Below are positions 2,076 through 46,807 of a stretch of 64,000 nt of DNA, piece after piece. The notes beneath the pieces are model-generated. The model worked only from the letters and a program-made list of their open reading frames with translations. It searched no databases and had not been told where the DNA came from. The position numbers and the translations under genes were made by a program. Source of the DNA: Ardenticatenia bacterium (GTDB taxonomy: Bacteria > Chloroflexota > Anaerolineae > 4572-78 > NAK82); contig QEXY01000108.1 in assembly GCA_003130875.1 (NCBI GenBank), positions 3,806-67,805 on the forward strand. Reading direction: 5' to 3'. Each line of letters starts with the position of its first letter. The first letter of the stretch is position 1.

Positions 2076-4619
2076 TCAGCGCCGCAATTCCGACACCTGG
2101 AGTGCCGCACGCAGCACCACCTTATCATCCAGCACCTCACCTGTGGCACTCACCACGGGCAGCCGCTCCCGAGTGACCGGGTCATACATTCCTACGAATA
2201 GGTCGAACGCGCCTGCCGGCATCTCGCGTGGCAGGGGAACGCGCACCGGATCTACCACCACCTCACCTGCCTGCCAGTTGTGAGTCGGGTAGGCGCCATC
2301 ATCCGGCATCGTGTCGCGCTGAGTCAGGAGACGCTCCTCGCCTGCCTCCATCCTGTCTATCACGTGGACGAAGACGGTATAATCTTGCGGCATATCCTGC
2401 TGTGCCTGCCAATATAGAACCATGCCAAACCAGCAGGCCGTTGTCACGGTTATGCTAGTTTCGTCTCCGCACGTCGGCAGCTGCAGATCGTAACCCACTA
2501 AACGTATCAAATTACCCAGTGAAGCATTCACCTGATATTGAGGACGCGGCACCTGCCACAGGCGTTCCACTGGCCCTCCCTCCGGCATGCCGAACACCTG
2601 GGAGAAACGTGCCAGCTCCAACAACGTTCCCTCGCTGGGCAGGCGCAACGCATAGCGCGCGTCCGCGACGGGGTGTGGCGTCAGCCGTATGCCGGGTTGC
2701 CATGGATCACGCCCGCGCATCACTCCCAATGCCAGGCGAAATGCGGACATATCTCGCGTGTACCATGGCAAGGTGTTGAACACAATGCGCACCCGTTCAC
2801 CCACCTGCCAGCGGCTCGTCGGATGCCAGACGAGTGCAGGCTGATCCACTGTTGTGGCACCGCGTGGAACACCCCACTCATCTAACAGGTACAGGGCAAT
2901 GAATAAATCCTCGTCCAGCGGGCGCAACGGTTCCATCCAAAGCACGACTTGCACCTCTTCGGCGCGATTGAAGCGCAGGTCGAAGCCCGCCAGGCGCAGC
3001 GCATCACCGAAGCTGGCCATAATGGGATGCTGCGGCAGAGCATCCTCCGCACGGGCGAAGTCAGTGAACGCCGGTGGCAGCTGATCGGGTTCGAGCGGCG
3101 GTGCCGAGGGCGTCGCGCGCAACAACAGGAAACCGTCCTCGGCAACCAATGGCTCCCATCCTCCTTGTTTGAGCAGCGCTATGATCACCTGGCGTTGGAA
3201 GTCATCCTGGTTGACCAGCGTGGAGACGTCGAACAGAAGATAATCGGGGGGTGGCAGCGTGCCGTCATAACAGCACGGGCCACCCTGCAGGAGCGCGGTG
3301 AGCAGCTGCGGATCGTAATACAGGACGCGCCTTCCGCTGACATGCGGGTTCAGATTGCTTTGGGCGAAAAGTGCCGCTTCGGGCGGTATTTGGGCGAAGA
3401 CCTCCTGAGCGCGGTGCGCGTGGGCGGTCACCGACGGCAGGCGGAACGGCCGTGCTAGGGGCGAGAAGCCCCGCGCATAGTGATAACCCAACGCACCGAT
3501 GAACAGCCAGGCACATGTGCCGAGCAAGACGTAGCGGGTGGCGGTGCGCCAACAGCGGGCGATGCGCATTCCCACCGCACGGATGCCCCACAGCGCCGAG
3601 ATGAGCACAAACGGCGTCAGCGGTGCCGCATAATGGAACTCTTCCAGCCGCCAGGTAAAGGGATTATCGCTGAGCAAGTTAATCGCCAGCGTGGGCAGCG
3701 TGGGCAACCAGGTCAGCGGGCTGAGTGCCGCCAGCAGGCCGGTGGGCAGCAACAGACCGCCCAAGTAGGCGGGCAGGTTGGCACGCTGCCATATGTGCTG
3801 CCACACCACTTCGGGGCGCTGCAGCAGAGTTCCCACCATCTCGGGCAGGTCGCGGCCCAACCAGGCATAGCGCACTGCCTGAATGTTGCCGCCGGTGGGG
3901 CTGAAAATGGGCTGCACTACGCTCAGCGCCACGACAAACCAGACGATGCCGCCCAGCAAGGCGGGCAACCCGAAACGCCAGCGGCGCGTCACCAGCGCAT
4001 ACAAGCCGAGCGATGCCACCGTCAGCGCCATGTCTTCTTTGCACGCCATCGCCAGCACCGCTGCCAGGGCAAAACGGCCAGGACGACGCGTTTCCAGGTA
4101 GTAGAAGGCGAACAGCAGGAAGGTGGGCGCCAGCGTGACGGCGTGGAAATCATACAATATAGCAGCTTCCAGCGCCGGCATGAGCAGGTAGGCGAGCGGG
4201 AAGACCAGTGCCAACCATGCCCCGACGCGACTGCCCACCGCTCCCCCTACGGATTCGTCTTGCCACAGTGCCCGTTGTGCCAGCCGGAACAGCGGCCATG
4301 CGCCCAGCCCCACCACGGCCGCCTGCACGAGCAGCAGCGCCACCGGGCCGCCCAGCCCCAGCCAATAGAATGGCACGAAGAGCAGCAGGATCGGCTCGAC
4401 GTGCAGCGCCAGCCGGTTGCGCAGCGGCGCCATATTGGTGAAGGCCATGAAGTCGCCATGGGCGGTGTTCCAAAGCGCCTGGTCGACGTTGCCCAGGTCC
4501 ATTCCGTTGCTCTCCAAGGCGAAATGGCGCTGGACGGCCAGGAAAGCGAACGTTACCACGAAGGTGACGCTCAGCAAGCCCAGCACAATGTGGGGCGCGT
4601 TTCTCCTGATTGCCCTCAT
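2076..4619 (-). CDS. DUF2079-like polytopic membrane protein with two C-terminal copies of the recurrent YWQA/YTVFVH domain
   Basis: Start moved to ATG 4617-4619 (MRAIRRNAPHIVLG...), which forms an ATGA overlap with the upstream stop. The first 150 codons of track ORF 2076..5069 are Arg/Gly-rich read-through of the neighbouring gene. NGMDLGNVDQALWNT and multiple TM segments recall DUF2079. Confidence 0.7.
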   Translation of the reverse strand: MRAIRRNAPHIVLGLLSVTFVVTFAFLAVQRHFALESNGMDLGNVDQALWNTAHGDFMAFTNMAPLRNRLALHVEPILLLFVPFYWLGLGGPVALLLVQAAVVGLGAWPLFRLAQRALWQDESVGGAVGSRVGAWLALVFPLAYLLMPALEAAILYDFHAVTLAPTFLLFAFYYLETRRPGRFALAAVLAMACKEDMALTVASLGLYALVTRRWRFGLPALLGGIVWFVVALSVVQPIFSPTGGNIQAVRYAWLGRDLPEMVGTLLQRPEVVWQHIWQRANLPAYLGGLLLPTGLLAALSPLTWLPTLPTLAINLLSDNPFTWRLEEFHYAAPLTPFVLISALWGIRAVGMRIARCWRTATRYVLLGTCAWLFIGALGYHYARGFSPLARPFRLPSVTAHAHRAQEVFAQIPPEAALFAQSNLNPHVSGRRVLYYDPQLLTALLQGGPCCYDGTLPPPDYLLFDVSTLVNQDDFQRQVIIALLKQGGWEPLVAEDGFLLLRATPSAPPLEPDQLPPAFTDFARAEDALPQHPIMASFGDALRLAGFDLRFNRAEEVQVVLWMEPLRPLDEDLFIALYLLDEWGVPRGATTVDQPALVWHPTSRWQVGERVRIVFNTLPWYTRDMSAFRLALGVMRGRDPWQPGIRLTPHPVADARYALRLPSEGTLLELARFSQVFGMPEGGPVERLWQVPRPQYQVNASLGNLIRLVGYDLQLPTCGDETSITVTTACWFGMVLYWQAQQDMPQDYTVFVHVIDRMEAGEERLLTQRDTMPDDGAYPTHNWQAGEVVVDPVRVPLPREMPAGAFDLFVGMYDPVTRERLPVVSATGEVLDDKVVLRAALQVSELRR

Positions 4620-6679
4620 GGCAAAGCCACCTCCTCCAGGATGAGACCGCCACCACCGCCACGCGCTCCTTGCGTTGGTGGCAACACCGCCCAGCTCTGG
4701 GGATCGTACATGCCCACCTCCAATTGATAGCGACCAGGTGGCGTTTCCGCGGGCCGTATCAAACGCTGCACATCCTCGATCAACTGCCCTGCCTTCCAGC
4801 GGTAGGTGGGCAGGAAGCCCATTACCGGCGGCGCGTCGGCACGCGCATAAATCGTGCCGGCGCCGTCCACCGCCCGCACGTAGACGAAGTATTCGGGCAG
4901 GTTGCTGCGCAGCGCGCGCCAATAGAGCGCCACGTCCAACCCATGCGGATGGTCGGCCGCCGGGCGCACTGCATATCCCTCCAAGACGACCACGTCGCCC
5001 ATGCGCACCCCCAGCGGGATGGCGCCCTCGGGCAAACCGCCACGCACGATCACCGCTGGATAGATCCACGCATATGCGACGCCGTTAATGTGGACGACGT
5101 GTTCGGGAATGCGCCTCTGAAAATATGCAATCAGGTTGGGATCAGGGATGTTACGTTGCACCTGGTTGACGTAGAAGACGGCATAATCCGCCTGGAGCAC
5201 ATTTTCGGTGGTGAAGAGGAGAGTCCTGCCTTTGAAGTAGGGCGCGAACGTCCATTCATACCAGGCTGCGACGCGCAATTGATCTGCATCCAGCTTAGTA
5301 TTGAGATATTCCGCGGCGCGGTCCATGCCCTCACCCCAGGCAATGTGCATGACGCGCGGCACCCACAGCCAACCCAGGAGCAGTGGATTGTAGTAGCTCA
5401 GGTAGTAGGGGGCATAGGGCAGCGTCCCAGCAAGCAAGAGGATGCCCCCCAACAGCGCCAGCCGCGGACGTGTCAGCACGGCGATTCGGTCTGTCAGCCC
5501 GTCCATAGCACGCAGCAGCCCCCAGGCGGCCAACGGTGCCAGCGCCACCAGTGGCATCAACGCATAGCGCACGCTTTTCTTCTCGGCGAAGGTCATCACC
5601 ACCAGATAGAACACGACATATACCCAGAGCGACCATTCCAATCGCCGGTGCGTCGCGCGGCGCAGGGTGAACAGGCCGACCAGCACGCCGATGAGCATCA
5701 GCGGCGAGATGCGCACCAGCAGCGCCAGCGGGTAGAACCCCGGTCCGGGGTCGAACACCGTCTGACCCATCCAGTACATGCCTAGATTGCCGGAGCCAGG
5801 TGGCATATTCTTCCACAGCCAGTCGAAGGCCCACACCACCGCGCCGAGAGGATCCACCCACATCGCTGGCCAGATGAGCGCAAAGGTGACAGCTGCCACC
5901 AGCACGCTGACCAGCCACTGCCCGGCAGCCGGCACGATCCAACGGTGAAGGGCAGGCGCATGCGGCCGCTCCGTCCACCAAAAGAGCAGCGCGAGGAGCG
6001 CCAGCGCCGGCAGCAATACCAGCGCTATCGTGACGGTCGAGATGGAAAGCCCGCAAAAGACGCCGCTCAACACAAGCCAGAGGCGGCGGCGTTGCACCAG
6101 CCACAGCAACCAGAGGGTCACCGTCAGGAACATCAGCAGCGCCAGCGGCACCGCCATGTGCACCAGGCGCCCGTAGCCCAACAGCGTAGCGTCGAAGGCC
6201 AGAAGCAACGTGGCAATCAGCGCCACCCGGTCGCCATAAACCCGACGGCCGAACAGATAGATGAATTCCAGTAACACGGTCACCAACACAATGGTGGCAA
6301 TGCGCGCGGCGACGTAGTAGGGGCGGGGCTGGATGTGCCATCCCGCCAGGAACTGATCCAGCGACAGACCCGGCGGAAAGCTGGGCACCCAACCTTGCCG
6401 TGCCAGGACGAACTCCAGCGCCAGGGCTGCGCCGTGTGCCCAGGCGAGCGGCATGTCCGGATAGCCCATTCCCAACGTCAAGCGCAGGTCACCGCTCGTC
6501 AGCCCTTCGAGGAACTGCATCGCGCTGTTCAGGATGGGGCGCTCATCCGCGGCGATGAAACGGTCGATGTCCCACAGGCGCGGCAACAGGATGAGCACGG
6601 CCAGCACTAAGCAGACCAGCCATATGGGTGCCAGAGGACGGTCGTCCGGCCACTTCGGGGCGCTGAGATGTGTTACCAT
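4616..6679 (-). CDS. GT-C-like (ArnT/PMT_2-like) polytopic membrane protein with the recurrent C-terminal domain
   Basis: Start placed at ATG 6677-6679 (MVTHLSAPKWPDD...), overlapping the upstream stop region. More than 10 hydrophobic segments. C-terminal tail LEGYAV..LYWRAL..YFVYVRAVD..ADAPP..LPTYRW..VGMYDP. Confidence 0.7.
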   Translation of the reverse strand: MVTHLSAPKWPDDRPLAPIWLVCLVLAVLILLPRLWDIDRFIAADERPILNSAMQFLEGLTSGDLRLTLGMGYPDMPLAWAHGAALALEFVLARQGWVPSFPPGLSLDQFLAGWHIQPRPYYVAARIATIVLVTVLLEFIYLFGRRVYGDRVALIATLLLAFDATLLGYGRLVHMAVPLALLMFLTVTLWLLWLVQRRRLWLVLSGVFCGLSISTVTIALVLLPALALLALLFWWTERPHAPALHRWIVPAAGQWLVSVLVAAVTFALIWPAMWVDPLGAVVWAFDWLWKNMPPGSGNLGMYWMGQTVFDPGPGFYPLALLVRISPLMLIGVLVGLFTLRRATHRRLEWSLWVYVVFYLVVMTFAEKKSVRYALMPLVALAPLAAWGLLRAMDGLTDRIAVLTRPRLALLGGILLLAGTLPYAPYYLSYYNPLLLGWLWVPRVMHIAWGEGMDRAAEYLNTKLDADQLRVAAWYEWTFAPYFKGRTLLFTTENVLQADYAVFYVNQVQRNIPDPNLIAYFQRRIPEHVVHINGVAYAWIYPAVIVRGGLPEGAIPLGVRMGDVVVLEGYAVRPAADHPHGLDVALYWRALRSNLPEYFVYVRAVDGAGTIYARADAPPVMGFLPTYRWKAGQLIEDVQRLIRPAETPPGRYQLEVGMYDPQSWAVLPPTQGARGGGGGLILEEVALP

Positions 6680-8730
6680 ATCCCCTCCAGACGCAGTGGC
6701 ACAGCGTTCTCGCCGCTCGTATCGCCCACCACGGGCAGCCGTTCCAGCGTGTCCAGTCGATAGAGACCCACCCATAGCGTAAAACTGTCCAGCGGCGTGC
6801 CCCGTGGCAGCTGGAGCACGCTGCGCTCGCGGATGGTGCGTCCGGGTGGCCACAGGGTGGGGGGATAGACCGGCGCCAGAGGCACGTGATCCGCCTGTGC
6901 CACGGTGCGCCCCAGGTCATCCCGCAGGTGTACGAACACCGTGTAGTCATACTCCAACGGGCGCTGTGCCTGCCAGTAGAGCACCAATTCCAGACTGCGT
7001 ACCGGATTGCCGACGAGCAGCGCGACATCATAGCCCTGCAGGGTGATCCGGTCGCTGAACTGGACAGCGAGTGGCCGCGTGGGATGCTCCGGGATGAGAC
7101 GGGCGCCCGGCCGTGAGCGCAGGATGATGATGCCGTTCTCCTCACGTACAAAGTCGGTCATCGCCAGCAGACGCTGCATGGTGAGGGGGGTGAAATACTC
7201 GAGCGTCAGCCCCCAGCGCTCCAGCACCAGCCAGACACGCCGCGGTCCGCTCAGCACGGCGTGCAGTTGTGCATCGCTGCCCAGCCACGGCGATCCCACC
7301 CAACGATCCACGATCTGCCCAGCCCGCTCCATCAGGCGATAGGCATAGCCGGTGCCCTGCATAGCGTAGTAATCGTTGCGCCCCAGGTAGAACGCCGCCG
7401 CTGCTGGTGTGCCCGTGAGGACGGCGTCGCCCGCCTGCCAATTGGCACGCACATAAGCAAAGGCGGCGTCGTAATCGCTGCCGCGGCGTGCCACGAGTGC
7501 GGCAGCTGCCGGACCATAACCCCCTGCGATGACGGCACAGGCTGCCAATGCCATCGGCATCCCCACACGACGCAGTTGTCCCTCACGCTGCAACACGCGA
7601 GCCAGAAAGCCCGCCAGACGTACCAATCCCTCTGCTGCCAGCAGGGCTAGCATGGGCAAGAGCATGAAGTAATAGCGCTCATCGCGCCGTTGTGGCGCCA
7701 CCCCCAGCCCCATCTCCAGCACGCTGACGCCGACCAGCCACGCCAGGAAGAGGACGGCGCGGTCGCGTGTATCCGTTGTGCTGCCACGTCGATGGCGCAA
7801 TGCCGTGCCTATGCTTCCCACCGCCAAGATGGACAGCCAGAGATGTTCTGGCGCGCCGAAGAAAGCCGCGGCGGCCGGCCAGCCCGCCGCCACATCTTCC
7901 GGCCAGGCAGCGTAAATGCTCAGTACCTGGAGGAGGCCGCTGAAGATGCTGGACGGCGTGCCTTCCAGAGGAGCGATGCTGTTCGGTTGCCCCAGCCGCT
8001 TGACCAGCACTGCCACTATGGCCACACCCGCCCAGACGGGCAGCTCCACCAAAAAGGTACGCAGCCCCTTATGGCGCGCATGCCGCCCCAGGAGCATCCC
8101 CATGCCGCTCACCAGCGGCACGAGCAGGGCCAGCGCGACGAAGTGGGTCAGCGCGGCAGATAACAGTGCCGCCGCGGCCAGCAGACGCCAGCGGCGGCTG
8201 TCCTGCACCGCGCCGCGCAGGGCAGCGTCGCTCGCCAGCAGCACCCACACCAGCAGCAAGCTGTACATACGCGCGCGGCCACCCCACAGGACGGCATCCG
8301 GAGCAAATGCCAGCACGGCTGCGGTGAGCAACCCGGTCAGCGTGCTGAAATGGCGCCGCCCCCAATGCCAGGCCAACAAGATGCTGCCCAGGCTGGCCAG
8401 CAAGCTGGCGGCGCGCACTGCCTCGCGACTGAAACCGGCAAGGGCGCTCGCAGCCGCGCCCAGGTAGGAGAAGAAGAGACCGTGCTCGTAGAACAGGCCA
8501 GAAGGGAGAATGGGCAATCCTCGCTCCAGAATGGCGCGCACCGCCAGCAGGGTGACGAACTCGTCGGGATAGGGTTGCACGTGCACCAGGTAGCGCCAAC
8601 GCCACCATGCCGCCAGCCCTACCACTGCCACCATCGCGGCGGCCAAGGCGAAATATCCTCTTTCGTGAGTGTTGTTGCGCAGGCGAGTCGCGTCCTCTGT
8701 CACTGGAAAAGCAGCGGGGCGCAGGCACAA
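6673..8730 (-). CDS. GT-C-like (ArnT/PMT-like) polytopic membrane protein with the recurrent C-terminal domain
   Basis: 685-aa ORF with polytopic N-terminal two-thirds. Tail LQGYDV..LYWQAQ..DYTVFVHLRD..QADHVP..YPPTLW..VGLYRL. The start is uncertain: the track start is TTG at 8728-8730, with an alternative GTG at 8701-8703. Confidence 0.7.
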   Translation of the reverse strand: MCLRPAAFPVTEDATRLRNNTHERGYFALAAAMVAVVGLAAWWRWRYLVHVQPYPDEFVTLLAVRAILERGLPILPSGLFYEHGLFFSYLGAAASALAGFSREAVRAASLLASLGSILLAWHWGRRHFSTLTGLLTAAVLAFAPDAVLWGGRARMYSLLLVWVLLASDAALRGAVQDSRRWRLLAAAALLSAALTHFVALALLVPLVSGMGMLLGRHARHKGLRTFLVELPVWAGVAIVAVLVKRLGQPNSIAPLEGTPSSIFSGLLQVLSIYAAWPEDVAAGWPAAAAFFGAPEHLWLSILAVGSIGTALRHRRGSTTDTRDRAVLFLAWLVGVSVLEMGLGVAPQRRDERYYFMLLPMLALLAAEGLVRLAGFLARVLQREGQLRRVGMPMALAACAVIAGGYGPAAAALVARRGSDYDAAFAYVRANWQAGDAVLTGTPAAAAFYLGRNDYYAMQGTGYAYRLMERAGQIVDRWVGSPWLGSDAQLHAVLSGPRRVWLVLERWGLTLEYFTPLTMQRLLAMTDFVREENGIIILRSRPGARLIPEHPTRPLAVQFSDRITLQGYDVALLVGNPVRSLELVLYWQAQRPLEYDYTVFVHLRDDLGRTVAQADHVPLAPVYPPTLWPPGRTIRERSVLQLPRGTPLDSFTLWVGLYRLDTLERLPVVGDTSGENAVPLRLEGIW

Positions 8731-9002: not shown

Positions 9003-9893
9003 ATGGACACAACAGCTGCCAATCGCACGTTCGCCTATGTGGCGTCGCTGCGGGCGCGTCGGGATGCTGCGCGTCCGCTCATCCTAATCACCAACGACGA
9101 TGGCATCGCCTCACCGGGGCTCTACGCCGCGGTGCGCGCCGTCAGCGACCTGGGCGAGGTGGTGGTCGTGGCGCCGCGGCAACAGTTCTCCAACGCCAGC
9201 CGTTGCCATCCCCCCTCGGCGTGGGGACACGAACCCGGTCCGACGGAGCGCATCGCCCTGCCCGCCGATTGCCCGGCCACCCTGGCCTACGCTGTGGATG
9301 GCTCGCCGGCGCAGGCGGTGGCGCGCGCGTGGATCGAGCTCTTGAACCGCCTGCCCGACCTAGTGATCAGTGGCATCAATTACGGCGAGAACCTCGGGTC
9401 GGGCACGACAGTTTCGGGCACCGTGGGCGCGGCCATCGAAGCCGCTTGTGTCGGCATCCCCGCACTGGCGGTCTCGTTGCAAACCCACCCCGATTTCTAC
9501 TACCACCCGTCCGAACAGGTAGACTTCCGCGCCGCCGCGCATTTCACCCGCATGTTTGCCCAGGCGATGCTGGCTGGTGCACTCCCTGCCGACGTGGACA
9601 TTCTCAAGGTCGATGTGCCTGCGGATGCGACTCCGGAGACCCCTTGGCGCGTCACCCGCGTCTCGCGCCAGCCTTATTACGTGCCGGTGATTCCGCGCGA
9701 GCGCGGCATCCCAGATTATCGCATCGAGATCGACCTGGAGACACTGGAGCCCGACTCGGACATTTATGCGCTGGTGGTCGCGCGCGCGGTCTCGGTCTGC
9801 CCGCTGAGCATCGACCTCTCCTCACGGGTGGATCGCCAGCAGCTGTGCCAGCTGCTGGCGGAGCGCACGGTTGCCCGCCGAGTGGAACGTTAA
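9003..9893 (+). CDS. surE: 5'/3'-nucleotidase SurE
   Basis: LILITNDDGIASPGL ... ISGINYGENLGSGTTVSGTVGAAIEA are SurE hallmark motifs. Start placed at ATG 9003 (MDTTAAN...) inside the longer track ORF. Confidence 0.85.
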   Translation: MDTTAANRTFAYVASLRARRDAARPLILITNDDGIASPGLYAAVRAVSDLGEVVVVAPRQQFSNASRCHPPSAWGHEPGPTERIALPADCPATLAYAVDGSPAQAVARAWIELLNRLPDLVISGINYGENLGSGTTVSGTVGAAIEAACVGIPALAVSLQTHPDFYYHPSEQVDFRAAAHFTRMFAQAMLAGALPADVDILKVDVPADATPETPWRVTRVSRQPYYVPVIPRERGIPDYRIEIDLETLEPDSDIYALVVARAVSVCPLSIDLSSRVDRQQLCQLLAERTVARRVER

Positions 9894-11473
9894 CGCGCCG
9901 ACCAGGGGCGCCAACGGTACAGTACACCCCCTAACACCAGCAACATTACCAGCAGCGCCGTGATCACTGTGCGCTGGGTATCCCCCAGCGTCAACAACGT
10001 GTCGCCGGTGACCGGCACGGCCGGTGTCGGCAGCGCGGCTGCGGCCGGCGGTGTGGCTGTAGGGGCCGGTAACTCGGCGATTGCCAGCTCCGTGATTTCA
10101 GGCACCGGTGTCGGCGGGGTCACCGGAGTAGGGGGTGGCAACGTGACGCTGGGCAGCAGCGGTGATGGGGTGACCGCGATGAACGGCGTGGCCCCAGGCA
10201 GTGATGTCGGAGGTGGTGGCGTGACGCTGGGCAGCAGTGTCGGAGTGACCGCAGCGAGCGGCGTTACCCCAGGCGGCAAGGTCGGCAGCATGATGGCTGT
10301 GGGCGTCTGCAATGCGACGGCCACCACAGGACCGACCAAGCTGACGCGCGTGATGTCGTACATCCCTTCGCCCGCATCCGCCCACTTCTTCCACGCACGG
10401 ATGAAGACGGTCAGCTGGGGCTGGCGTGCGGTGATGGTGGTGGTGAAGACCTCCATGCGGTAAGACGGCTGGTCGCGAGACTGCTCATCCCACGGCAGTT
10501 CGATCCAGGACTCGACTGCCTGCCAGTTGTTCCCGCCTTGTGGATCGAAACCGATCTGCATCCGATAGCCGTAACCGGTCTGCTGTACATCACCTTGCGG
10601 GGTGCGCACCAAGCCGGCGATGGTGAAAGTATAGACCCCGCCCGGCACCACGTTGACGGTCTGGTGGATGCCCAGGTAGCGGTCGGGAAGGTCAGCGCCG
10701 CGGATGTGCAGCGTCTGGGAGCGCAGTACCTCTCCCGTCATCGTGCGCAACGTGTCGGGATAGCACCAGAAAGTGGCAGCGCCGTTGTGAAAGACTTCCC
10801 ATGCGTCGGCCACCCCACCACGCAAGAATTCGCCGCTGAAGTCGCCGTTGCGCATCACCTCGGCGATGGTGACGCGAGGCAACGGTGCGGCGGGAGAAGG
10901 CAGCGGTGTCGGGGATAGGCGAGCTGTGGGAGTGGCCGTCGGCGATACCTCCTCGGCCACGACGCCCACCTCAACGCTGATCGGCGAAGGGGATGGTGCG
11001 ACGGTGGTGCGCAGAGGTGTCGCCGTGGCGGTGGGCATGGCGGTGGCCGGCCGAGGAGTCGGCGTCGGGACGATGGTCAGCGGGATCAAGGTGGGCGTGG
11101 CCGTGCTGGGCCGCGTTGGGCTGGGCACCACGACGATCGCGGTCGGCGTTGCTGTAGGCGTGACAGTCACCAGAACAGTAACCGTAACTGAGGATGTAGG
11201 CGTCGCGGTGTCTTCAGCCGGCGCGGTGCCCAGGATGACCACCGGCGTGGACGTCGGACTCGGTGAGATGGTCACCGTCGGTGTGCCTGGTGCAGAGACA
11301 ATGGGTGTCGTCGCCGGCGTTGTCACACCCAGCAGCTGGCGCAACGCTTCGGGTGGCACGCTGCGCAGCGCAGCATAGGCAACCAGCAAGAGCAAGAGGA
11401 CAAGCAGCAACAAGAGCAGGAGGACGCGGACGAACAAAGGGGCGCCTCTCAGGCCAGTAGGTCGTGTGCTCAT
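9890..11473 (-). CDS. Pro/Thr-rich surface protein with a central CBM-like beta-sandwich domain and TM segments at both ends
   Basis: Start at ATG 11471-11473 (MSTRPTGLRGAPLFVRVLLLLLLLV...). Long P/T/S/V low-complexity linkers flank a globular block NGDFSGEF..WEVFHNGAATFW..YRMQIGFDPQGG... C-terminus is LLVMLLVLGGVLYRWRPWSAR. Confidence 0.7.
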   Translation of the reverse strand: MSTRPTGLRGAPLFVRVLLLLLLLVLLLLLVAYAALRSVPPEALRQLLGVTTPATTPIVSAPGTPTVTISPSPTSTPVVILGTAPAEDTATPTSSVTVTVLVTVTPTATPTAIVVVPSPTRPSTATPTLIPLTIVPTPTPRPATAMPTATATPLRTTVAPSPSPISVEVGVVAEEVSPTATPTARLSPTPLPSPAAPLPRVTIAEVMRNGDFSGEFLRGGVADAWEVFHNGAATFWCYPDTLRTMTGEVLRSQTLHIRGADLPDRYLGIHQTVNVVPGGVYTFTIAGLVRTPQGDVQQTGYGYRMQIGFDPQGGNNWQAVESWIELPWDEQSRDQPSYRMEVFTTTITARQPQLTVFIRAWKKWADAGEGMYDITRVSLVGPVVAVALQTPTAIMLPTLPPGVTPLAAVTPTLLPSVTPPPPTSLPGATPFIAVTPSPLLPSVTLPPPTPVTPPTPVPEITELAIAELPAPTATPPAAAALPTPAVPVTGDTLLTLGDTQRTVITALLVMLLVLGGVLYRWRPWSAR

Positions 11474-11629
11474 CGTCGTTTCTCCCAATCCTCGTGATGA
11501 ACCGCTGTCCAAGTGAAAAGATCCCGCCCAGGTTGCGGACTCCTGGCAGGCGCGTGGGAATAACAAGAGACAAGAGCGCGATTTTCCTTATGGAACAGTA
11601 TAACACACTGTTGGGCTTATGTCAACAGA

Positions 11630-11719
11630 GAGGGTGTTGAAAAACTCTTTAGTTACCCGCTTTATTGACCCATTTTCCTATGAAAATCTGAGCGGTCAAG
11701 GGACTTTTTCAACACCCTC
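11630..11719 (+). mobile_element. 90-bp MITE-like element, copy 1
   Basis: Terminal inverted repeats GAGGGTGTTGAAAAA ... TTTTTCAACACCCTC. Near-identical to 60626..60715 (same orientation) and 25306..25395 (inverted). No flanking direct repeat at this copy. Confidence 0.85.
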
Positions 11720-11732
11720 ATGCTGATCCCTC

Positions 11733-11761
11733 TTGCATATGATGTTGAAATATGGTATCAT
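11733..11761 (+). promoter_or_regulatory. Putative sigma-70-type promoter of the CHAT cassette
   Basis: TTGCAT (11733-11738), 17-nt spacer, TATCAT (11756-11761), about 140 nt upstream of the CHAT start. Confidence 0.4.
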
Positions 11762-11900: not shown

Positions 11901-13322
11901 ATGCGTTACGTGGACTTTACGATCCGTGCCCGCGACTGGCAGGATGGCCATTTCAAGGTGGAGGTCACCCAGTCGCCGCTGGACCGCATGCGGGAACCGG
12001 AACAGGTCAGCCAGCTGCCCAACCTGGTGCGCCATCTGCGCAATTTGGAGCGCAAACGGATTTCCACACCAGATTTGCGCGCGCTGGGCAAACAGCTGGC
12101 CGAGATGTTGTTGCCCCCCACGGTGCGCGAGATGTTCTTCGCCAGCATGGCCGCGCTCGACCCGGAAAGCGGGCTGCGCCTGCGGCTGGTGCTGGACGAC
12201 CTGCGCGTGGCCAACCTGCCATGGGAGTATCTCTACCTGTCACCGCTCAAGGAGGAACACACGCCTTATGGCTTTCTGGCACTGGACGCGCGCATTTCGA
12301 TCGTGCGTCACGAGGCGATCCCCATCGCCCCCGGTTCCGTGGGCGCCCGTCTTCCTCTCAAGCTGGTGGTGGGCTTTGCCTCGCCGGCGCAGTGCCCCCG
12401 CCTGGATCTCGCCACCGAACGCGAATATATTGCGAAAGCCCTGGACGGTGTCGCCAGCGTCCAGGTCACCTTCGTGGAGCATCTGACGGCCGAGCGCCTG
12501 GAGGTGGCCTGCCAAGGCGCCCACATGTTCCACTTCGCCGGCCACGCCGGCTTTATGTGGCAGGACAACGGGCGCACGGCTGGATACGGCGCCATTTTCC
12601 TCGAAGACGCACAAGGTGACCTCAGCCCGATGCCGGTCGAACAGTTAGCCCAGACATTGCGCCGCTGCGGCGTGCGCGTCGTCTTCCTAGGCGGTTGCGA
12701 GACAGGCCGGCGCGACGGAGTCAATGCATGGAGCGGCGTGGCGCCTGCACTGATGCGCGTCGGCATTCCCGCTGCCGTCGCCATGCAATACGCCATCTAC
12801 GATGAGGCGGCCATCGCCTTTGCCCACCGTTTCTATGCGGCGCTGTCCGCCGGATTGTCTCTGGACGAGGCCGTGACAGCCGGCCGGCTCGCCATTTTGG
12901 GCCGTGGCAAGGAGGCAGGCACCGAATGGGGAGTGCCGGTGCTCTACATGCGCTCCAGCGATGGGGTGATCTTCCCCGAGATGGCTGCCGACCCATCCCT
13001 GGAAGCGTTCCGCCACGCCCAGCGCGTGCACGTCTCCCAACAGGTGCGGCAACTACGCGACCGTCTGACCGGCATCGAAGTCGGCCAGGCACCCCACACC
13101 ACGCTGGAGGTGACCCAGGAGATCGGCCGGGTCGCTCCCGGCGGTGAAGCGCTCGGCGCGCGCATCGAAAGCATCGCCGCCGGGGTCATCCACGCCATCC
13201 AAAAAGTGGAACACATCGGTCCAGGCGGCAAGCTCACCGGCATCAGCCTGCGCCGAACGGGAGACCGGTCCGCCCAGGCCCTACAGCCCGATGAAGCGCG
13301 AGTGTTGAGGAGAGAACGATGA
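11901..13322 (+). CDS. CHAT-domain (caspase-like) protease
   Basis: Start at ATG 11901 behind GGGGGAAG. The N-terminal FTIRARDWQDGHFKVEVTQSP opening is typical of CHAT proteins. Catalytic-dyad contexts HMFHFAGHAG and VVFLGGCETG. The stop overlaps the next ATG (ATGA at 13319-13322). Confidence 0.85.
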   Translation: MRYVDFTIRARDWQDGHFKVEVTQSPLDRMREPEQVSQLPNLVRHLRNLERKRISTPDLRALGKQLAEMLLPPTVREMFFASMAALDPESGLRLRLVLDDLRVANLPWEYLYLSPLKEEHTPYGFLALDARISIVRHEAIPIAPGSVGARLPLKLVVGFASPAQCPRLDLATEREYIAKALDGVASVQVTFVEHLTAERLEVACQGAHMFHFAGHAGFMWQDNGRTAGYGAIFLEDAQGDLSPMPVEQLAQTLRRCGVRVVFLGGCETGRRDGVNAWSGVAPALMRVGIPAAVAMQYAIYDEAAIAFAHRFYAALSAGLSLDEAVTAGRLAILGRGKEAGTEWGVPVLYMRSSDGVIFPEMAADPSLEAFRHAQRVHVSQQVRQLRDRLTGIEVGQAPHTTLEVTQEIGRVAPGGEALGARIESIAAGVIHAIQKVEHIGPGGKLTGISLRRTGDRSAQALQPDEARVLRRER

Positions 13323-15043
13323 CCGAGCCGGGAATGCGTCTGCGCCAATTGCAACAAATCCCCCTCTTCGCTTTGCGTCAGGCAATGGATCAGCTGCTGG
13401 CGGACGAGAAGACCGAGGCAATCTTACAGCGGCGGTTCGGCCACATCTTCAATCGTCGGCTCCACCACATGCGCCAGGCGATCGCGCGGATGAGCCGCGA
13501 GCAGCTCACCGCCCTGGTGGACGCCTGCCCTGAAATCAGCGATGAGCAGATCGCACAGTTGTTCGAACAATATCGTTTCGGCAGCAATCCCGTGCTCCAG
13601 GTGTACCTCTTCGACAAGACCGTCCTGCGCCGCGATGCTCTCCAGGATCTACATGGCCGCCTGGAGCAAGAGCTGGCTGCCTTCAATCAACCACGCCACG
13701 AGGGTCTTCCGGCGCTGCGCCAGTTGGCCGTCTTTGCACTGATCTCCTTGCCAGAGCAACCGGGCGTTGTAGAGGGGGTCTATCGCTTCCAGACTCGCCT
13801 CGATTACATCGATGCCAACGAGCACGCCGCCTGTACCTATCAGACGCTCTACGGCCTGTTCTGGCTGAGCCCGACGGAGGGCTACCTCACCGTCCAAGTG
13901 CGCAACACCGAGGTGCTGAAGGTACTTAAGGGTGCATTGGAGCGCGCCATGGGCATCTCGTTAGCCCCTTTGGTGATCTCCAAACAGCTTAAGAATGCGC
14001 TGCCGTTCCTGCTGCGCGAGTCCTTCCGCTTCGGCCGGTTGCACGACCCCGACCCAGGTCCGGGACGCTTCCGCTGGCTGACCATCGCCGACGACAACGC
14101 CTATGCCCGGGGGTATCAGGATCTGGAAGAGCGCTATCCGGAAGTGCACAGCGTCCGCTACCGCGAGACGTTGGGCGAGGACCGCGAGACAACGCTCACC
14201 ATTCGCTGTGACCGTGGCGCCTTGAGCCTGAGCGGCATCCTCAGCGCCGCGCAGCTGCGCGCCTGGACACTGGACCGCCTTGGGCAGCTGATCAGCCTGC
14301 TGAATGAATTTCGCCCCAACGCTCCGGCATACGCGACAGGGACGTCCGACCTGGAACAGCTGCCCCCACTGAGTCCCTTCAGCATCATCCAGCGCCATCA
14401 CGTCCGCCGGATCATCTCCGCGTTGTTGACGGTGAAACAATCCCCGCTTTTAGGTTATCACCCACTCGACGTGGATCCTTTGCAGCTGGCCCACGACATG
14501 GGCACCTGGATGCGTCTGCAAATCCCTGTGGAGCACCCGGCGATGTCCGAGGAGAGCGAAGGCTACCTGGCCTGTCCGACGTGCGGTGGCACCACCACCT
14601 TTGCCCTGCAGCGGCGCAACGGCGGCTGGGAGTTGGGGTGTCGCGAACACCGCCAGCAGCGCTGGGCAGCCCCCTTGCCCCTCATCATAGGTGAGACGGA
14701 GACGCAAGAGACTTTCACCCTCGACGCCGAAGAGCTTGCCACTACGATGGAACTGCTCCCTTCAGAAGCGTTGCGGCAGATCATCGCTGAGGTGATCAAC
14801 CGCCACCTGCCCGGCCATACCTTTGACTTGAAGCGCGAGAGCTTCATCATCCGTGGCCCTCACCTGCGCTACTACCCAGATAAATCACAGGTGTACGACA
14901 GCGCACAATCCGGCGCCCGGACGGTCATCTATGTGAGCCAGCACATCGCCCACCTCGAAGGAGGTGAGGTCGTGGGCGTCAAACCAGAAGGCAGCGAGAT
15001 CGAAGTGCGCACCAGCTGCGCCTCCGCGACGCCATCGGACTGA
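13319..15043 (+). CDS. Hypothetical 574-aa protein, translationally coupled partner of the CHAT protease
   Basis: Long ORF with composition typical of this genome's coding regions. Contains a zinc-ribbon-like CPTCGG(x18)GCREH. I recognise no family. Confidence 0.75.
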   Translation: MTEPGMRLRQLQQIPLFALRQAMDQLLADEKTEAILQRRFGHIFNRRLHHMRQAIARMSREQLTALVDACPEISDEQIAQLFEQYRFGSNPVLQVYLFDKTVLRRDALQDLHGRLEQELAAFNQPRHEGLPALRQLAVFALISLPEQPGVVEGVYRFQTRLDYIDANEHAACTYQTLYGLFWLSPTEGYLTVQVRNTEVLKVLKGALERAMGISLAPLVISKQLKNALPFLLRESFRFGRLHDPDPGPGRFRWLTIADDNAYARGYQDLEERYPEVHSVRYRETLGEDRETTLTIRCDRGALSLSGILSAAQLRAWTLDRLGQLISLLNEFRPNAPAYATGTSDLEQLPPLSPFSIIQRHHVRRIISALLTVKQSPLLGYHPLDVDPLQLAHDMGTWMRLQIPVEHPAMSEESEGYLACPTCGGTTTFALQRRNGGWELGCREHRQQRWAAPLPLIIGETETQETFTLDAEELATTMELLPSEALRQIIAEVINRHLPGHTFDLKRESFIIRGPHLRYYPDKSQVYDSAQSGARTVIYVSQHIAHLEGGEVVGVKPEGSEIEVRTSCASATPSD

Positions 15044-15058
15044 GGGAACTGTTCTCGC

Positions 15059-15092
15059 GAAAGACGCGGAGGCTATGACCTCCGCGTCTTTC
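15059..15092. terminator. Bidirectional stem-loop between convergent genes
   Basis: Perfect 14-bp inverted repeat GAAAGACGCGGAGG / CCTCCGCGTCTTTC with a 6-nt loop. It lies between the stop at 15043 (+) and the stop at 15149 (-). Confidence 0.7.
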
Positions 15093-15148
15093 GTGTTGGA
15101 GCGCACGTTTCGTGTCCAAAATGTGCGCCGCGGCGCGACGGGCTGCCC

Positions 15149-25305: not shown

Positions 25306-25395
25306 GAGGGTGTTGAAAAAGTCCCTTGACCGCTCAGATTTTCATAGGAAAATGGGCCAATAAAGCGGGTAACTAAAGAGTTTTTCAACACCCTC
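25306..25395 (-). mobile_element. 90-bp MITE-like element, copy 2 (inverted relative to copies 1 and 3)
   Basis: Same 15-bp terminal inverted repeats. The interior is the reverse complement of copy 1 with one mismatch. It is flanked by the perfect 7-bp direct repeat GATACCT (25299-25305 and 25396-25402). Confidence 0.9.
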
Positions 25396-25750: not shown

Positions 25751-28714
25751 ATGGTATCTGCGACGGACAACCAACCGCCTTCCCCGATGAGGGCTGCGAG
25801 GGCATCGGATGCCGCATCAGCTGCAGCCTCTTCAGCGCGCCGCGTCGACGCAGGTCTGCTGGTTGCTCTGCTCCTGACACTGTTTGCCATCTGGCCGCTG
25901 CTGGCCCACCGCGGCCTGCCCAACACGGCGGACGGGGCGGTGCACCTGATGCGTCAGGCGGAGCTCAACCAAGCCTGGAAGGATGGCATCCTGTATCCGC
26001 GCTGGGCGCCGGACCTGGCATATGGATACGGTATGCCCCTCTTTCACTACGCGCCGCCGCTGCTCTATCAGGTGACGCAGGGGTTGCATATGGCGGGACT
26101 ACCCCTGGATGAGGCGATGAAAAGCACTCTGATCATGATGGTGCTGCTCTACAGCACGGGCAGCTATCTCTTCGTGCGGGATGTTTTCAGCCCACGTGCG
26201 GGAGTGCTGGCGGCTGCCACGTACTTATATGCCCCCTACCGTCTGCGTGAGCTCTACATCCAGGGCAATTACGGTCAGTTCTGCGGGCTTGCCTTCTACC
26301 CGCTTATCCTGTGGGCGTTCTACCGCAGCGCCACCGACCGGTCACCACGCTATCTGCCGCTGGCAGGGCTGGCGTTGGCGGGGTTGTTGCTGAGCCACAA
26401 CATCAGCTTCATGCTGTTCGTCCCCCTGTGGATGGGTTATCTCGCCTACCTGCTCCTGTTTGGCGCGCCGGAGATGCTGGGACGGAGGACGGTGGTGAAG
26501 CGTTTCGTCCTGGCCGGCGTCTTGGGACTGGGGCTCGCTGCCTTCTTCTGGCTGCCCGCCTTCGCCGAACGCGATGCGATCCGCCTCGCCGGCATCACCA
26601 CTGGTTTCTTCGATTTTCGGCGCAACTTCATCGGCCTGGACGAATTGCTCGCCCTGCCGCGCCCGCTTGACCAGGCAGCTGTCAATCCCTACTTCCCGCT
26701 GAGCCTGGGCGCCTCACAACTGGCGTGGGCCGGACTGGCGCTGGTGAGCTGCCTTGTGTGTCTATCGATCGGGCTGGGCCACTTCCTGGTCCGTGGAACC
26801 GTCCCGGACAGGAAACCCCTTGAATGTCCTGCGGACCGACACCTGAGCGGACACGTCCTCTACTTCGGCGCTGCCTTGCTGGTGTATGGCTTTCTGATGC
26901 TTCCCGAATCGCAGCCCTTATGGGAGGCAGCGCCTCTGCTTGAACTGGCCGAGTTTCCCTGGCGTATGTTAGGGCCGGCGGGGTTATGCGCCGCGGTGCT
27001 GGCCGGCGGATGGGTCCATCTGTGGGAAAGGTGGTTTGCTTCCGCTGCCTTGTCCCAGCGCGCCGGCCGCGTCGTCCTGGTCATCGGGCTGGCGCTGACC
27101 CTGGCCGCCCATCTGTTTTACTTCTTTCCCACCCAATTCATCGCCTGGGGTACGCCCACCCCCGACGACGTGATGGCCTATGAGCGGCGTTCTCGCGCCA
27201 TCGGCACCACCAGTACCGGCGAATTCCTGCCGCGCTGGGCAGAGCGGCACCCTTCGCCCGACGTGCTGGCGCCCCCACAAGCGAGCGACGAGCTCGCCCC
27301 GCGGGTCGAACCGCTCTCCCTGCCAGAAGGCGCCCGCACCAGGACGCTGCAGGTCACCGCGCACCAGATCCTGTTGTACGTCAACAGCCCAAGGGATTTC
27401 ACCGCCACCTTCCGGTTGTTGTACTGGCCTGGCTGGCAGGTGTGGATCCGGCAGCTGCCCGATGGAGCATGGCAACCGGTGACAGAGGTCGAGGTCACCC
27501 GGCCGGATGGACTGATGCGCGCACCGCTGCCCGCCGGCGAGATCGAGGTCTTACTCCGTTTAGAAGAATCCCCCCTGCGCCGTTTCAGTGCGTGGGTTTC
27601 TCTACTGGCTGCCATCGCGTGCGCCGGGATCGTGCTCTGGACACGGCTGCACCCCACCACAAAATCGCAGCGCGCGGTTGCTACATCCCCGGACGCGCAT
27701 CCCCGACCGACCCTCCGCACGTATCCGCGGCGTGAGGCGTTGATCCTTGCGTCCGGCCTTCTGGCCGCCGTGCTGGCAATTCGCCCCCTCGAAAGCTGGC
27801 TGCGCGTTCAATCCCCACCCGGCAGTGTGGTGGGCGTGGAACACCCGCGCCGGGCGACCTTCGCCGACCAGGTGCACCTGTTGGGATACGACCTGCCGTC
27901 CTGCAGCCAATGGTGGACGCCAATCCGCTGCACCATGCCCGCAGACGAAGCGCTTCCGGAGATCCTCGCCCAGCCGGGCGAAACGCTGCGCGTCGTGCTC
28001 TACTGGCAGGCGCTGCGCCCCTTGGAACGCGACTACAGCGTGTTCCTGCATCTGAACGGGCTGGATCAGCGCACCTATGCCGGCGACGATGAGGTGCATC
28101 CGGACGACATCCCCACTTCCTCCTGGCCGCCGACAATGTACGTGCGCAATCCGATGCGCCTGGTGTTGCCGGCAGACGCCCCGCCGGTGCGTTACACCCT
28201 CCAGACAGGCCTTTATCTCCGAGCCAATGGAAAACGGCTGCATGCCGCGGAGTGCGCCTGCAGCGAATTTCCGCTCGCTTACGTCTGGCTGCTGCCGGCG
28301 GCTCCGCTCACCGAGCAGGATATCCCGAATCGGCTGGGGTATCGGCTGGGCAACACGATTCAGCTGCTCGGCTACCAGCTCGAGCGGTCGCCCGACCGGC
28401 TGACCCTCTATTGGCGCACCGATCAGCGCCAGGTCACCCGTTACACTGTCTTCATCCATGTGTACGACGCGCACGACCACATGATCGCCCAGGCGGATTC
28501 GCCGCCGTTCGGTGGTCTGTACCCCACCGATGCGTGGCTGCCGGGACAGATCATCGCCGATCTCCATACCCTTGCGCTGCCGGCGCAGGCTCACATCCTG
28601 CGCGTGGGTCTCTATGACCTATCCAGCATGCAACGCCTGAGCGCCACCGGTCCGGACGGACAGCCGGCCGCGGAGGACGCCATTGTGATCCCGATCGCCA
28701 ATGCCGAGCTCTAG
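25751..28714 (+). CDS. Giant polytopic membrane protein (PTPS-related/COG5617-like, GT-C-like) with two C-terminal copies of the recurrent domain
   Basis: 987-aa ORF. N-terminal block ADGAVHLMRQAEL..GILYPRWAPDLAYGYGMPLFHYAPPLLY recalls the '6-pyruvoyl-tetrahydropterin synthase-related' membrane family. Domain copies lie at about 27858-28290 and 28343-28711. The start could instead be Met13. Confidence 0.7.
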   Translation: MVSATDNQPPSPMRAARASDAASAAASSARRVDAGLLVALLLTLFAIWPLLAHRGLPNTADGAVHLMRQAELNQAWKDGILYPRWAPDLAYGYGMPLFHYAPPLLYQVTQGLHMAGLPLDEAMKSTLIMMVLLYSTGSYLFVRDVFSPRAGVLAAATYLYAPYRLRELYIQGNYGQFCGLAFYPLILWAFYRSATDRSPRYLPLAGLALAGLLLSHNISFMLFVPLWMGYLAYLLLFGAPEMLGRRTVVKRFVLAGVLGLGLAAFFWLPAFAERDAIRLAGITTGFFDFRRNFIGLDELLALPRPLDQAAVNPYFPLSLGASQLAWAGLALVSCLVCLSIGLGHFLVRGTVPDRKPLECPADRHLSGHVLYFGAALLVYGFLMLPESQPLWEAAPLLELAEFPWRMLGPAGLCAAVLAGGWVHLWERWFASAALSQRAGRVVLVIGLALTLAAHLFYFFPTQFIAWGTPTPDDVMAYERRSRAIGTTSTGEFLPRWAERHPSPDVLAPPQASDELAPRVEPLSLPEGARTRTLQVTAHQILLYVNSPRDFTATFRLLYWPGWQVWIRQLPDGAWQPVTEVEVTRPDGLMRAPLPAGEIEVLLRLEESPLRRFSAWVSLLAAIACAGIVLWTRLHPTTKSQRAVATSPDAHPRPTLRTYPRREALILASGLLAAVLAIRPLESWLRVQSPPGSVVGVEHPRRATFADQVHLLGYDLPSCSQWWTPIRCTMPADEALPEILAQPGETLRVVLYWQALRPLERDYSVFLHLNGLDQRTYAGDDEVHPDDIPTSSWPPTMYVRNPMRLVLPADAPPVRYTLQTGLYLRANGKRLHAAECACSEFPLAYVWLLPAAPLTEQDIPNRLGYRLGNTIQLLGYQLERSPDRLTLYWRTDQRQVTRYTVFIHVYDAHDHMIAQADSPPFGGLYPTDAWLPGQIIADLHTLALPAQAHILRVGLYDLSSMQRLSATGPDGQPAAEDAIVIPIANAEL

Positions 28715-30974: not shown

Positions 30975-31051
30975 CAGGCTTTTATGCCCCTTAACCCTTT
31001 CTTTCACCAGGGACGAGGGAGGGGCGCCTCGGGTTAAATCCCACATCACCG

Positions 31052-46602: not shown

Positions 46603-46616
46603 CCATGTTTCCCTTT

Positions 46617-46659
46617 GGTTCGCTCCCGTTGAGGATGCTACCCTCGGCGGGAGCGAACC
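46617..46659 (+). promoter_or_regulatory. Intercistronic stem-loop 1 after the fusion SBP gene
   Basis: Perfect 12-bp inverted repeat GGTTCGCTCCCG / CGGGAGCGAACC with a 19-nt loop, starting 15 nt after the stop. Confidence 0.6.
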
Positions 46660-46699
46660 GCATAGCTTTTCATTGCGGCGCAACCTGTGCCCGTGGCAG

Positions 46700-46758
46700 C
46701 TTGCTCCCCTTCGCGATGCACCCCGCAAGAACACTATAGAAGGGGAGCAAGGTTTTGT
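46700..46758 (+). promoter_or_regulatory. Intercistronic stem-loop 2 with a trailing T-run (possible partial terminator)
   Basis: Perfect 12-bp inverted repeat CTTGCTCCCCTT / AAGGGGAGCAAG with a 28-nt loop, followed by GTTTTGT. Confidence 0.55.
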
Positions 46759-46807
46759 AATGTCCGTAGCGATTGGTAGCGATGTACTCAGGAGCTGCTG
46801 ACCACCT

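Follow-up and report, generated by a model that had tools for sequence, protein, structure and literature searches.

A CHAT protease gene coupled to a gene for a partner with a predicted RdgC-like fold, and a tail motif common to both products, in an Ardenticatenia bacterium

A 64-kb stretch of contig QEXY01000108.1 from an Ardenticatenia bacterium (Chloroflexota), called the window below, carries a two-gene cassette that consists of a gene for a caspase-like CHAT protease and a gene for a partner protein of 574 residues. The start codon of the partner gene overlaps the stop codon of the protease gene in an ATGA at 13319-13322; this coupling, first noted in a first-pass annotation of the letters, is confirmed in the map of open reading frames (ORFs). 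Both start codons are preceded by purine-rich, Shine-Dalgarno-like sequences, GGGGGA and GAGGAG. The two products carry the same motif of about 22 residues near their C-termini, three times in the protease and once in the partner, and tails of this kind may wire the two proteins to each other. The parts of the cassette are as follows.

11901-13322, + strand: CHAT protease gene, 473 residues (ORF map and Pfam CHAT)
12081-12905, + strand: CHAT catalytic domain, residues 61-335 (Pfam), with His215 at 12543-12545 and Cys266 at 12696-12698
13029-13256, + strand: C-terminal tail of the protease, three tandem units of the beta motif of about 22 residues (residues 377-396, 402-425 and 430-452)
13319-15043, + strand: partner gene, 574 residues (ORF map)
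13319-13582, + strand: six-helix N-terminal domain of the partner, residues 1-88, the most conserved part of the family
13586-14533, + strand: alpha/beta core of the partner with a predicted RdgC-like fold, residues 90-405 approximately (Foldseek)
14573-14650, + strand: zinc-ribbon-like knuckles of the partner, C419, C422, C441 and H444
14924-14989, + strand: C-terminal motif of the partner, VIYVSQHIAHLEGGEVVGVKPE, residues 536-557, a single copy in a tail that is modelled with low confidence

The protease and the motif of the two tails

The protease is, to judge from its sequence, catalytically intact. The Pfam CHAT profile (PF12770, caspase fold, clan CD) matches residues 61-335 with 97.2 bits against a gathering cut-off of 24 (E 1.5e-27), and the His/Cys dyad that had been recognised in HFAGHAG (residues 211-217) and FLGGCETG (residues 262-269) is invariant, as H215 and C266, in an alignment of 54 sequences. 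The AlphaFold2 model has a mean predicted local distance difference test score (pLDDT) of 83.3, and its best Foldseek matches are SAVED-CHAT, the TPR-CHAT protein of Craspase and separase (probability 1.0), with the activated SAVED-CHAT filament at the top. The SAVED_CHAT profile of PADLOC matches the CHAT part alone (E 2.3e-6). Equivalence to HetF was considered and rejected, as the NCBIfam HetF profile gives 51.8 bits, far under its cut-off of 1200 bits.

The motif of the tails is rich in G, V, I and Q and can be written as h-x-V-x-Q-x-(I/V)-G-x-V-x-x-G-G-x-V-x-G-(V/I). Compared with the long ORFs of the window it is enriched in G (1.9-fold), V (2.3-fold), I (2.1-fold) and Q (1.5-fold), as well as in N and E, and it is depleted in L and P (0.26-fold each) and in aromatic residues. 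A profile hidden Markov model (HMM) was built from 36 partner tails only and searched against 1349 ORFs of at least 80 residues from the window and from related loci (designated here by L numbers, individual relatives by P numbers). It matches the CHAT tails in every locus, that of the window with E 1.2e-6. It also finds single units in the N-terminal region of proteins encoded next to the partner in L007, L008 and L009, both ahead of the NTPase domain in STAND NTPases, which are NOD-like receptors (NLRs), and in proteins with a zinc ribbon or tetratricopeptide repeats (TPR). The unit on the NLR side starts at residues 14-37 in four proteins and at about residues 115-130 in three; it occupies, for example, residues 14-34 of an nSTAND1-WD40 protein and residues 29-48 of an nSTAND1-TPR protein.

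None of 6745 shuffled decoys scores below E 0.1 with the partner-tail HMM; a few reversed sequences do score, because the motif is nearly palindromic. The reciprocal HMM, for which eight units of the NLR side were used, has no decoy among its matches, which consist of 10 partner tails and 11 CHAT tails alone. Within the 64 kb of the window the motif HMM detects no third motif-bearing ORF besides the protease and the partner. The proposal of the first-pass annotation that the CHAT tail could be a docking or oligomerisation element, at the time a guess, is thus strongly borne out, as far as sequence comparison goes, since the partner and the NLRs of neighbouring genes have the same motif.

The motif also forms part of a small N-terminal module, in which a short zinc ribbon (residues 3-42 approximately) is followed 10-35 residues later by one motif copy. 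It is encoded at 4837-5985 in L007, at 7777-8757 in L008 and from 5911 onwards in L025, and its carriers are a TPR protein, a protein of 326 residues that otherwise lacks Pfam domains, and a NACHT-CHAT protein.

In parts of both families the motif is replaced by other tails. Relatives of the CHAT protease carry EAD7 (P0248) or TCAD2 (P0252) exactly where the window protein has its triple motif, and further relatives are fusions with STAND or TIR modules. Among the partner homologues, P0024 and P0049 have a Pfam TCAD2 domain, and in the sub-clade of P0024, P0025 and L016 the tail reads instead ..IYGGDYVAG.K..GDK..GDKIT.GNI.GS.G.AIG.., followed by TCAD2. The gene upstream of the partner in L029 encodes a Peptidase_C14 caspase, not a CHAT protein, and the C-terminus of this caspase, GGD.VG.DK...GDKITVGNISGSTGVAIG followed by TCAD2, is the same kind of tail as that of its partner (GGD.V..GDK..GVAIG). 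In L010 an NLR of the nSTAND1-HEAT-FGE-sulfatase type, encoded downstream of a partner of the switched class, starts with the motif of that class, ..GGAYVEGQVHTGGGDFVGRDKIVHVY. The patterns of these two loci imply that the tail class changes jointly in protease, partner and NLR, and the presence of a C14 enzyme in place of CHAT in L029 implies that the pairing of protease and partner outlasts the replacement of the protease family. In L029 (3-3430) the TCAD2 domain of the partner is a separate ORF of 111 residues that starts at the partner stop codon, which points to a split gene or to a sequencing error.

The partner family, its linkage to proteases and the surroundings of the cassette

The partner belongs to no recognisable family, as had been stated from the letters. 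It has no match in Pfam, NCBIfam or PADLOC, seven of its relatives likewise have no PADLOC family, and a sequence profile search of the PDB gave a single, weak match, to the zinc ribbon of aIF2-beta; assignment to a family by sequence was given up with this match as its sole yield. The family comprises 59 clusters at 90% identity, from a search of 5.8 billion proteins, and 130 representatives at 50% identity, from an exhaustive HMMER scan, and none of them is named by any source. A genome scan with a 36-sequence alignment and three peptide patterns gave matches in 16 species genomes, all of them metagenome-assembled genomes of Chloroflexota (Anaerolineae, Ardenticatenia, Caldilineae and Chloroflexia), the closest being an Anaerolineae genome at 91% identity; with three peptide patterns as its sole queries, the scan sets a minimum for the phyletic spread. 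Viral contigs contain no relatives of the partner, so that there is no evidence of a phage origin.

The AlphaFold2 model of the partner, computed from an alignment of 65 sequences, has a pLDDT of 86.6 and a predicted template modelling score of 0.83. The zinc-ribbon-like element that had been seen in CPTCGG (residues 419-424) and GCREH (residues 440-444) is upheld by the family alignment, where C419, C422 and C441 are conserved and 25 of 36 sequences have H444. After the ribbon come a small alpha/beta domain at the C-terminal side and, from about residue 520, the low-confidence tail. In a Foldseek search of the PDB, RdgC (2owy/2owl) ranks first with E ~3e-6 (2.7e-6), probability 1.0 and all 306 columns of full-length RdgC aligned, ahead of CENP-L and CENP-N. 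The template modelling score normalised to RdgC is 0.41-0.43, which is fold-like and not close. The top matches in BFVD are phage RdgC-like proteins and proteins labelled 'exonuclease'. At the level of the fold, then, the modelled core resembles RdgC and its DNA-clamp-like architecture. The globular part of the protein is highly conserved, and of its 95 positions with a conservation of at least 90%, 18 are arginine or lysine, which would be compatible with nucleic-acid binding. An analogy to the partners of Craspase or to gasdermins was dropped, as no such structural match was found in the PDB or BFVD.

A distant relative of 693 residues, encoded in L027 (254-3545), has the RdgC-like module, zinc ribbons and an extra C-terminal domain, and its gene is followed directly downstream by one for an HsdM methylase of type I restriction-modification. 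The C-terminal domain of these relatives of about 690 residues has invariant PH-G-E-GD...K...Q residues. A nuclease identity for this domain was considered but is not supported: there is no Pfam or PADLOC match, and the matches in the PDB are chance ones to VEGF.

The linkage of the two genes was surveyed with phmmer and hmmsearch in 27 fetched loci, several of which are short or frameshifted metagenomic contigs. The arrangements are as follows.

CHAT gene immediately upstream of the partner gene: the window, L002/L003, L006, L011-L015, L017, L018 and L025
CHAT gene immediately downstream of the partner gene: L007
CHAT gene within a few kb of the partner gene: L008 and L009
No protease gene within 2.7-10 kb, housekeeping neighbours: L001, L004, L020, L021, L022, L024 and L026

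Consistent adjacency, which the first-pass annotation had raised as a test of its reading, is found among the closer homologues: for partners of at least 52% identity a CHAT gene lies directly upstream wherever the contig reaches (10 loci), and the same holds for L025 at 42%. L011-L013, L015 and L002 keep the synteny of the window, with partner identity down to 65%, and so are not independent observations; the contexts of L006, L007, L008, L009, L025 and L029 differ from it, and the distinct genomic contexts where protease and partner adjoin each other number at least five altogether. In P0119 the N-terminal module of the partner is fused to a CHAT protease that is 34% identical to that of the window (E 1e-42); the fused gene is followed by a gene for a 576-residue protein with no Pfam match. 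In L007-L009 the pair lies amid STAND NTPases of the NPHP3_N, nSTAND1 and NACHT types, which have arrays of TPR or WD40 repeats, together with a C14 caspase, more CHAT proteins and an endonuclease, and an NTPase core adjoins the partner homologue in L007-L010, L023 and L025. Chance adjacency can be rejected because of the recurrence of the pair, the P0119 fusion and the co-variation of the tails, and a functional link between the CHAT protease and the partner is supported.

Several of these loci have features of their own. The product of the gene directly upstream of the partner homologue in L025 (5911-11675) is a protein of 1353 residues with the order zinc ribbon, motif, NACHT, CHAT, triple motif, and the partner homologue itself is divided into two overlapping ORFs (10001-11320 and 11166-11675) and is probably frameshifted. 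The CHAT genes beside the partner homologues at 7814-9260 in L007 and at 861-1653 in L008 are also split into two overlapping ORFs each, which could reflect decay or assembly errors, and L008 begins with a fragment of a DDE transposase. The partner homologue of L020 (8882-11668) has no neighbouring CHAT gene; a gene for a 355-residue CoiA_N protein ends 4 nt upstream of it and a deoxynucleoside kinase gene comes after it. Proteins of 396 and 399 residues with no significant Pfam match are encoded beside CHAT and partner in two NLR-rich loci (L007 9389-10579 and L009 4684-5883) and may be a further component of the system.

In the window, the cassette is bounded by the following elements.

11630-11719: miniature inverted-repeat transposable element (MITE)-like element, about 90 bp long, terminal inverted repeats of 15-18 nt, the upstream boundary of the cassette
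11733-11761, + strand: weak candidate promoter, TTGCAT-17-TATCAT with a TG in front, read by eye
15058-15093: perfect inverted repeat with a GC-rich 15-bp stem, a 6-nt loop and no T-run, located where the partner gene and the M24-peptidase gene converge

The MITE copy named in the first-pass annotation is found as described. The element has three copies in the window, at 11630-11719, 25306-25395 (inverted) and 60626-60715, with the terminal inverted repeats GAGGGTGTTGAAAAA, and its terminal-repeat pattern is matched six times in the window against 0.07 expected by chance. The promoter-like element proposed beside it stands as a weak match by eye, but it is missing from the output of the consensus scan. 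The downstream hairpin is indeed perfect, but its stem measures 15 bp, not 14; it is possible that it serves as a bidirectional terminator. The neighbours of the cassette are on the opposite strand, as had been reported: a gene for a Pro/Thr-rich protein lies upstream, and downstream lie genes for an M24 peptidase and for a polysaccharide deacetylase. The Pro/Thr-rich protein (9890-11566, - strand, 558 residues, no Pfam match) has long low-complexity flanks rich in Pro, Thr and Ala, a Leu-rich hydrophobic stretch at its N-terminus and a globular centre.

The products of the window's large ORFs are proteins that resemble membrane glycosyltransferases, a P-type ATPase and a solute-binding protein. 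Very large membrane proteins that match DUF2079, PMT_2, PTPS_related and YfhO are encoded in two clusters (2076-8730 and 25751-34102), which suggest an envelope glycosylation locus; no Pfam profile matches the 757-residue ORF at 28701-30974. At 43837-46989 lies a fusion of SBP_bac_3 and SBP_bac_5 (921 residues, + strand) that is wholly overlapped by an antisense ORF of 1041 residues with no Pfam match; the latter is probably one of the spurious frames that are common where the GC content is high.

Known systems with adaptor tails

By analogy, the cassette looks like a member of the conflict systems of multicellular and filamentous bacteria in which NLRs and caspase-like enzymes are wired by adaptor domains or amyloid motifs. 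In the systems of the bacterial amyloid signalling sequence (BASS) and HET-s type, the effector has two or three pseudo-repeats of a motif of which the NLR has one copy, and the residues G, V, I, Q and N are over-represented in the motif, L and P under-represented; CHAT has been noted there as an alternative effector with BASS motifs (Dyrka et al. 2020, bioRxiv 10.1101/2020.01.06.895854). As in the pairs of an NLR with a Bell effector, a G/V/Q/N-rich beta motif of about 20-25 residues is common to the products of adjacent genes. In those pairs, which are limited to multicellular and filamentous bacteria, a single copy stands at the N-terminus of the NLR and one to three pseudo-repeats stand at the C-terminus of the effector. 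The asymmetry in copy number is the same in the cassette, with three units on the CHAT protease and one on the partner. The arrangement of an N-terminal motif on the NLR and a C-terminal one on the effector is present in L007, L008, L009 and L010, whereas the window has no STAND gene. The cassette further differs from the NLR/Bell pairs in that its effector is a CHAT protein and not Bell, and in that the RdgC-like partner with its C-terminal motif is a third component. The published BASS table has no BASS1-10 pairs for Chloroflexota.

A two-gene system that dispenses with an NLR is known from E. coli, where Bab and Agp (BASS11), which have an amyloid motif in common, cause anti-phage abortive infection with a non-NLR sensor; BASS11 is also reported to occur with CHAT, EAD7, TIR and NACHT (Ibarlosa et al. 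2024, bioRxiv 10.1101/2024.11.07.622273). The cassette is like Bab/Agp in its two genes, its common motif and its lack of an NLR sensor. The Agp sensor, however, is built as TPR-GreA/B-C-PIN, with an N-terminal motif, and its effector is a small pore-forming Bell-like protein, whereas the cassette has both of its motifs at C-termini and encodes a protease as effector beside an RdgC-like protein.

In the EAD/TCAD systems, caspase and CHAT effectors are recruited via short homotypic adaptors that they have in common with STAND/NLR cores (Kaur, Burroughs, Iyer, Aravind 2020, PMC7159879; 2021, PMC8195603). Relatives of both window proteins carry Pfam TCAD2 and EAD7, and their neighbours have the nSTAND1, NACHT, TPR, WD40 and FGE-sulfatase sensor architectures of such systems. 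The two window proteins themselves, in contrast, have the repeat motif in place of a Pfam EAD or TCAD domain, and the window has no MoxR/vWA, GTPase or STAND core. The term 'RdgC' is absent from the texts of PMC7159879 and PMC8195603. RdgC itself lacks the extra N-terminal helical domain, the zinc ribbon, the C-terminal alpha/beta domain and the adaptor tail of the partner.

The CHAT fold with its His/Cys dyad is also that of SAVED-CHAT, which is linked to type III CRISPR and CBASS and is activated by filament assembly, and of Craspase (TPR-CHAT/Csx29 with Csx30), which has a co-encoded substrate. Unlike these, the window protease has no SAVED or TPR domain, and neither Cas7-11 nor a cyclic-nucleotide sensor accompanies it; its coupling would be via a cross-beta tail. 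The first-pass annotation had proposed a conflict module of an undescribed type. What is new with respect to the known systems is the RdgC-like partner family, the class of the motif and the two-gene arrangement without an NLR; the kind of system has already been described (Dyrka 2020; Kaur 2020).

A possible mechanism and its significance

By combining the above observations with what is known of related systems, it is possible to outline how the cassette might work. The tails of the two proteins would be homotypic adaptors, as in the amyloid signalling between NLRs and effectors (HET-s/NWD2, BASS) and in the EAD/TCAD systems. A trigger would cause a protein with a single motif to oligomerise; this could be the RdgC-like partner on nucleic acid, or an NLR encoded elsewhere, or both. 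Once clustered, the single motifs would seed a cross-beta stack of the triple motif on the CHAT protease. The protease, thus concentrated, would be activated by proximity, as are SAVED-CHAT filaments and caspases, and would cut targets in the cell, the partner perhaps among them. As a result, the affected cell of the filament would stop growing or die. This model as a whole, in which the protease and the partner are wired by matching, amyloid-like homotypic tails, is in our judgement the probable one, if by no wide measure. Within it, we tentatively assign to the partner the role of nucleator or sensor, at somewhat less than an even chance, and favour this role over that of a substrate or effector recruited together with the protease, which seems rather doubtful.

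The sensor role of the partner is suggested by its single motif copy, as on NLRs, by the recurrence of cassettes without an NLR, by the P0119 fusion, by the C14 caspase that displaces CHAT and by the combination of a DNA-clamp-like fold with a zinc ribbon. The cassette might then be an inflammasome-like pathway that needs no NLR: the partner would sense foreign or aberrant DNA and assemble, its motifs would template a prion-like polymerisation of the CHAT triple motif, and the protease would be switched on by proximity. AIM2-ASC-caspase-1 would be the functional parallel of such a pathway. Put in this specific form the proposal is an unlikely one, though worth stating.

A number of observations weigh against the adaptor model or parts of it. 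The 64-kb window contains no STAND/NLR NTPase and no recognisable defence gene, so that the defence island looked for around the cassette is absent from it. The synteny of the cassette with the M24 peptidase and deacetylase genes is stable to 65% partner identity, unlike that of defence islands with their fast turnover. The adjacency to CHAT does not extend to the whole family, as the partner gene lies amid housekeeping genes with no nearby protease in 7 of about 21 informative loci, about a third. The partner carries its motif at the C-terminus, a place typical for effectors and not for sensors. The hairpins and long beta strands predicted for residues 376-450 of the CHAT tail (AlphaFold2, pLDDT 63-89) come from a monomer model and are thus not a demonstration of amyloid. 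Among the BASS1-10 sequences that the supplement prints as examples, none matches the window motif (best E 0.077-1.6, for a BASS7 variant; BASS4 E >= 1.8). Finally, the Pfam RdgC profile (PF04381) has no match to the partner at E <= 1, and hhalign of the partner against an RdgC alignment gives a probability of 0.6%, the alignment being shallow because a homologue search with E. coli RdgC returned just relatives of at least 85% identity. The profile alignment offered one piece, FFWInTxEGYvII against MMWIDTVNGLIMV, which was set aside as not significant. As there is no relation to RdgC at the level of sequence and the structural score is low, the claim made here is that of an RdgC-like fold, not of membership in the RdgC family.

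Three other accounts have to be considered. The partner might be an inactive DNA-binding toxin or regulator that its motif brings to the activated CHAT protease, cleavage then releasing or destroying the RdgC-like module, with an NLR elsewhere as the sensor. The C-terminal motif, which the partner has in common with Bell and CHAT effectors, would suit this, as would the NLRs with an N-terminal motif that flank the pair in the island-type loci L007, L009 and L010. The tight order of protease and then partner with translational overlap, the existence of other CHAT proteases with co-encoded substrates (Craspase/Csx30), the high conservation of the globular part and the stand-alone partner homologues point the same way. 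The caspase of L029, however, which has kept the partner and the tail, fits a partner that can work with any proximity-activated caspase better than it fits a conserved cleavage specificity; two-gene cassettes without an NLR recur in different contexts, the N-terminal module of the partner is fused to CHAT in P0119, and no cleavage site is identifiable in the partner. We regard this account as possible but not likely. Alternatively, no conflict system may be involved, and the partner may be a nucleoid or recombination factor analogous to RdgC, with CHAT as its dedicated regulatory protease, comparable to the HetF-type CHAT proteins of cyanobacterial development. The stable location of the cassette, the lack of defence genes in the window, the stand-alone homologues in housekeeping neighbourhoods and the weak HetF match of 51.8 bits can all be read in this way. 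Such a role is nevertheless improbable, given that the family is rare and confined to Chloroflexota (59 clusters; 16 species genomes), that its tails are variable and interchangeable between motif and TCAD2, that it is associated with NLR, CHAT and C14 islands, that a distant relative adjoins an HsdM gene and that the HetF score is far under its cut-off.

The tail motif might also be an ordinary oligomerisation or beta-helix segment, or low complexity, that neither templates nor signals, the resemblance of the tails being convergent. The moderately confident beta hairpins of the CHAT tail in the monomer model and the mismatch to the published BASS1-10 examples speak for it. Yet the HMMs match in both directions with significance and with no shuffled decoy, the tail class co-varies across protease, partner and NLR, and a single unit of about 22 residues, too short to fold alone, occurs in the disordered ends of otherwise unrelated proteins (the partner, NLRs and zinc-ribbon or TPR proteins). 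The chance that this account is right appears slim.

If the adaptor model is correct, bacterial amyloid and adaptor signalling would extend past the pairs of NLRs and pore-formers to proteases of the caspase fold and to a non-NLR component with a DNA-clamp-like fold. If, furthermore, the pathway can run from the partner without an NLR, amyloid-motif wiring would be found on a DNA-clamp fold previously unlinked to immunity. The joint swapping of CHAT and C14 proteases, two tail classes and NLRs would expose the logic of the adaptors and make their matching rules testable, and the two-gene cassette would be a compact system in which to study the proximity activation and the targets of bacterial caspase-like proteases. 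With it, Chloroflexota would also provide an example of the link that joins a multicellular habit to regulated cell death.

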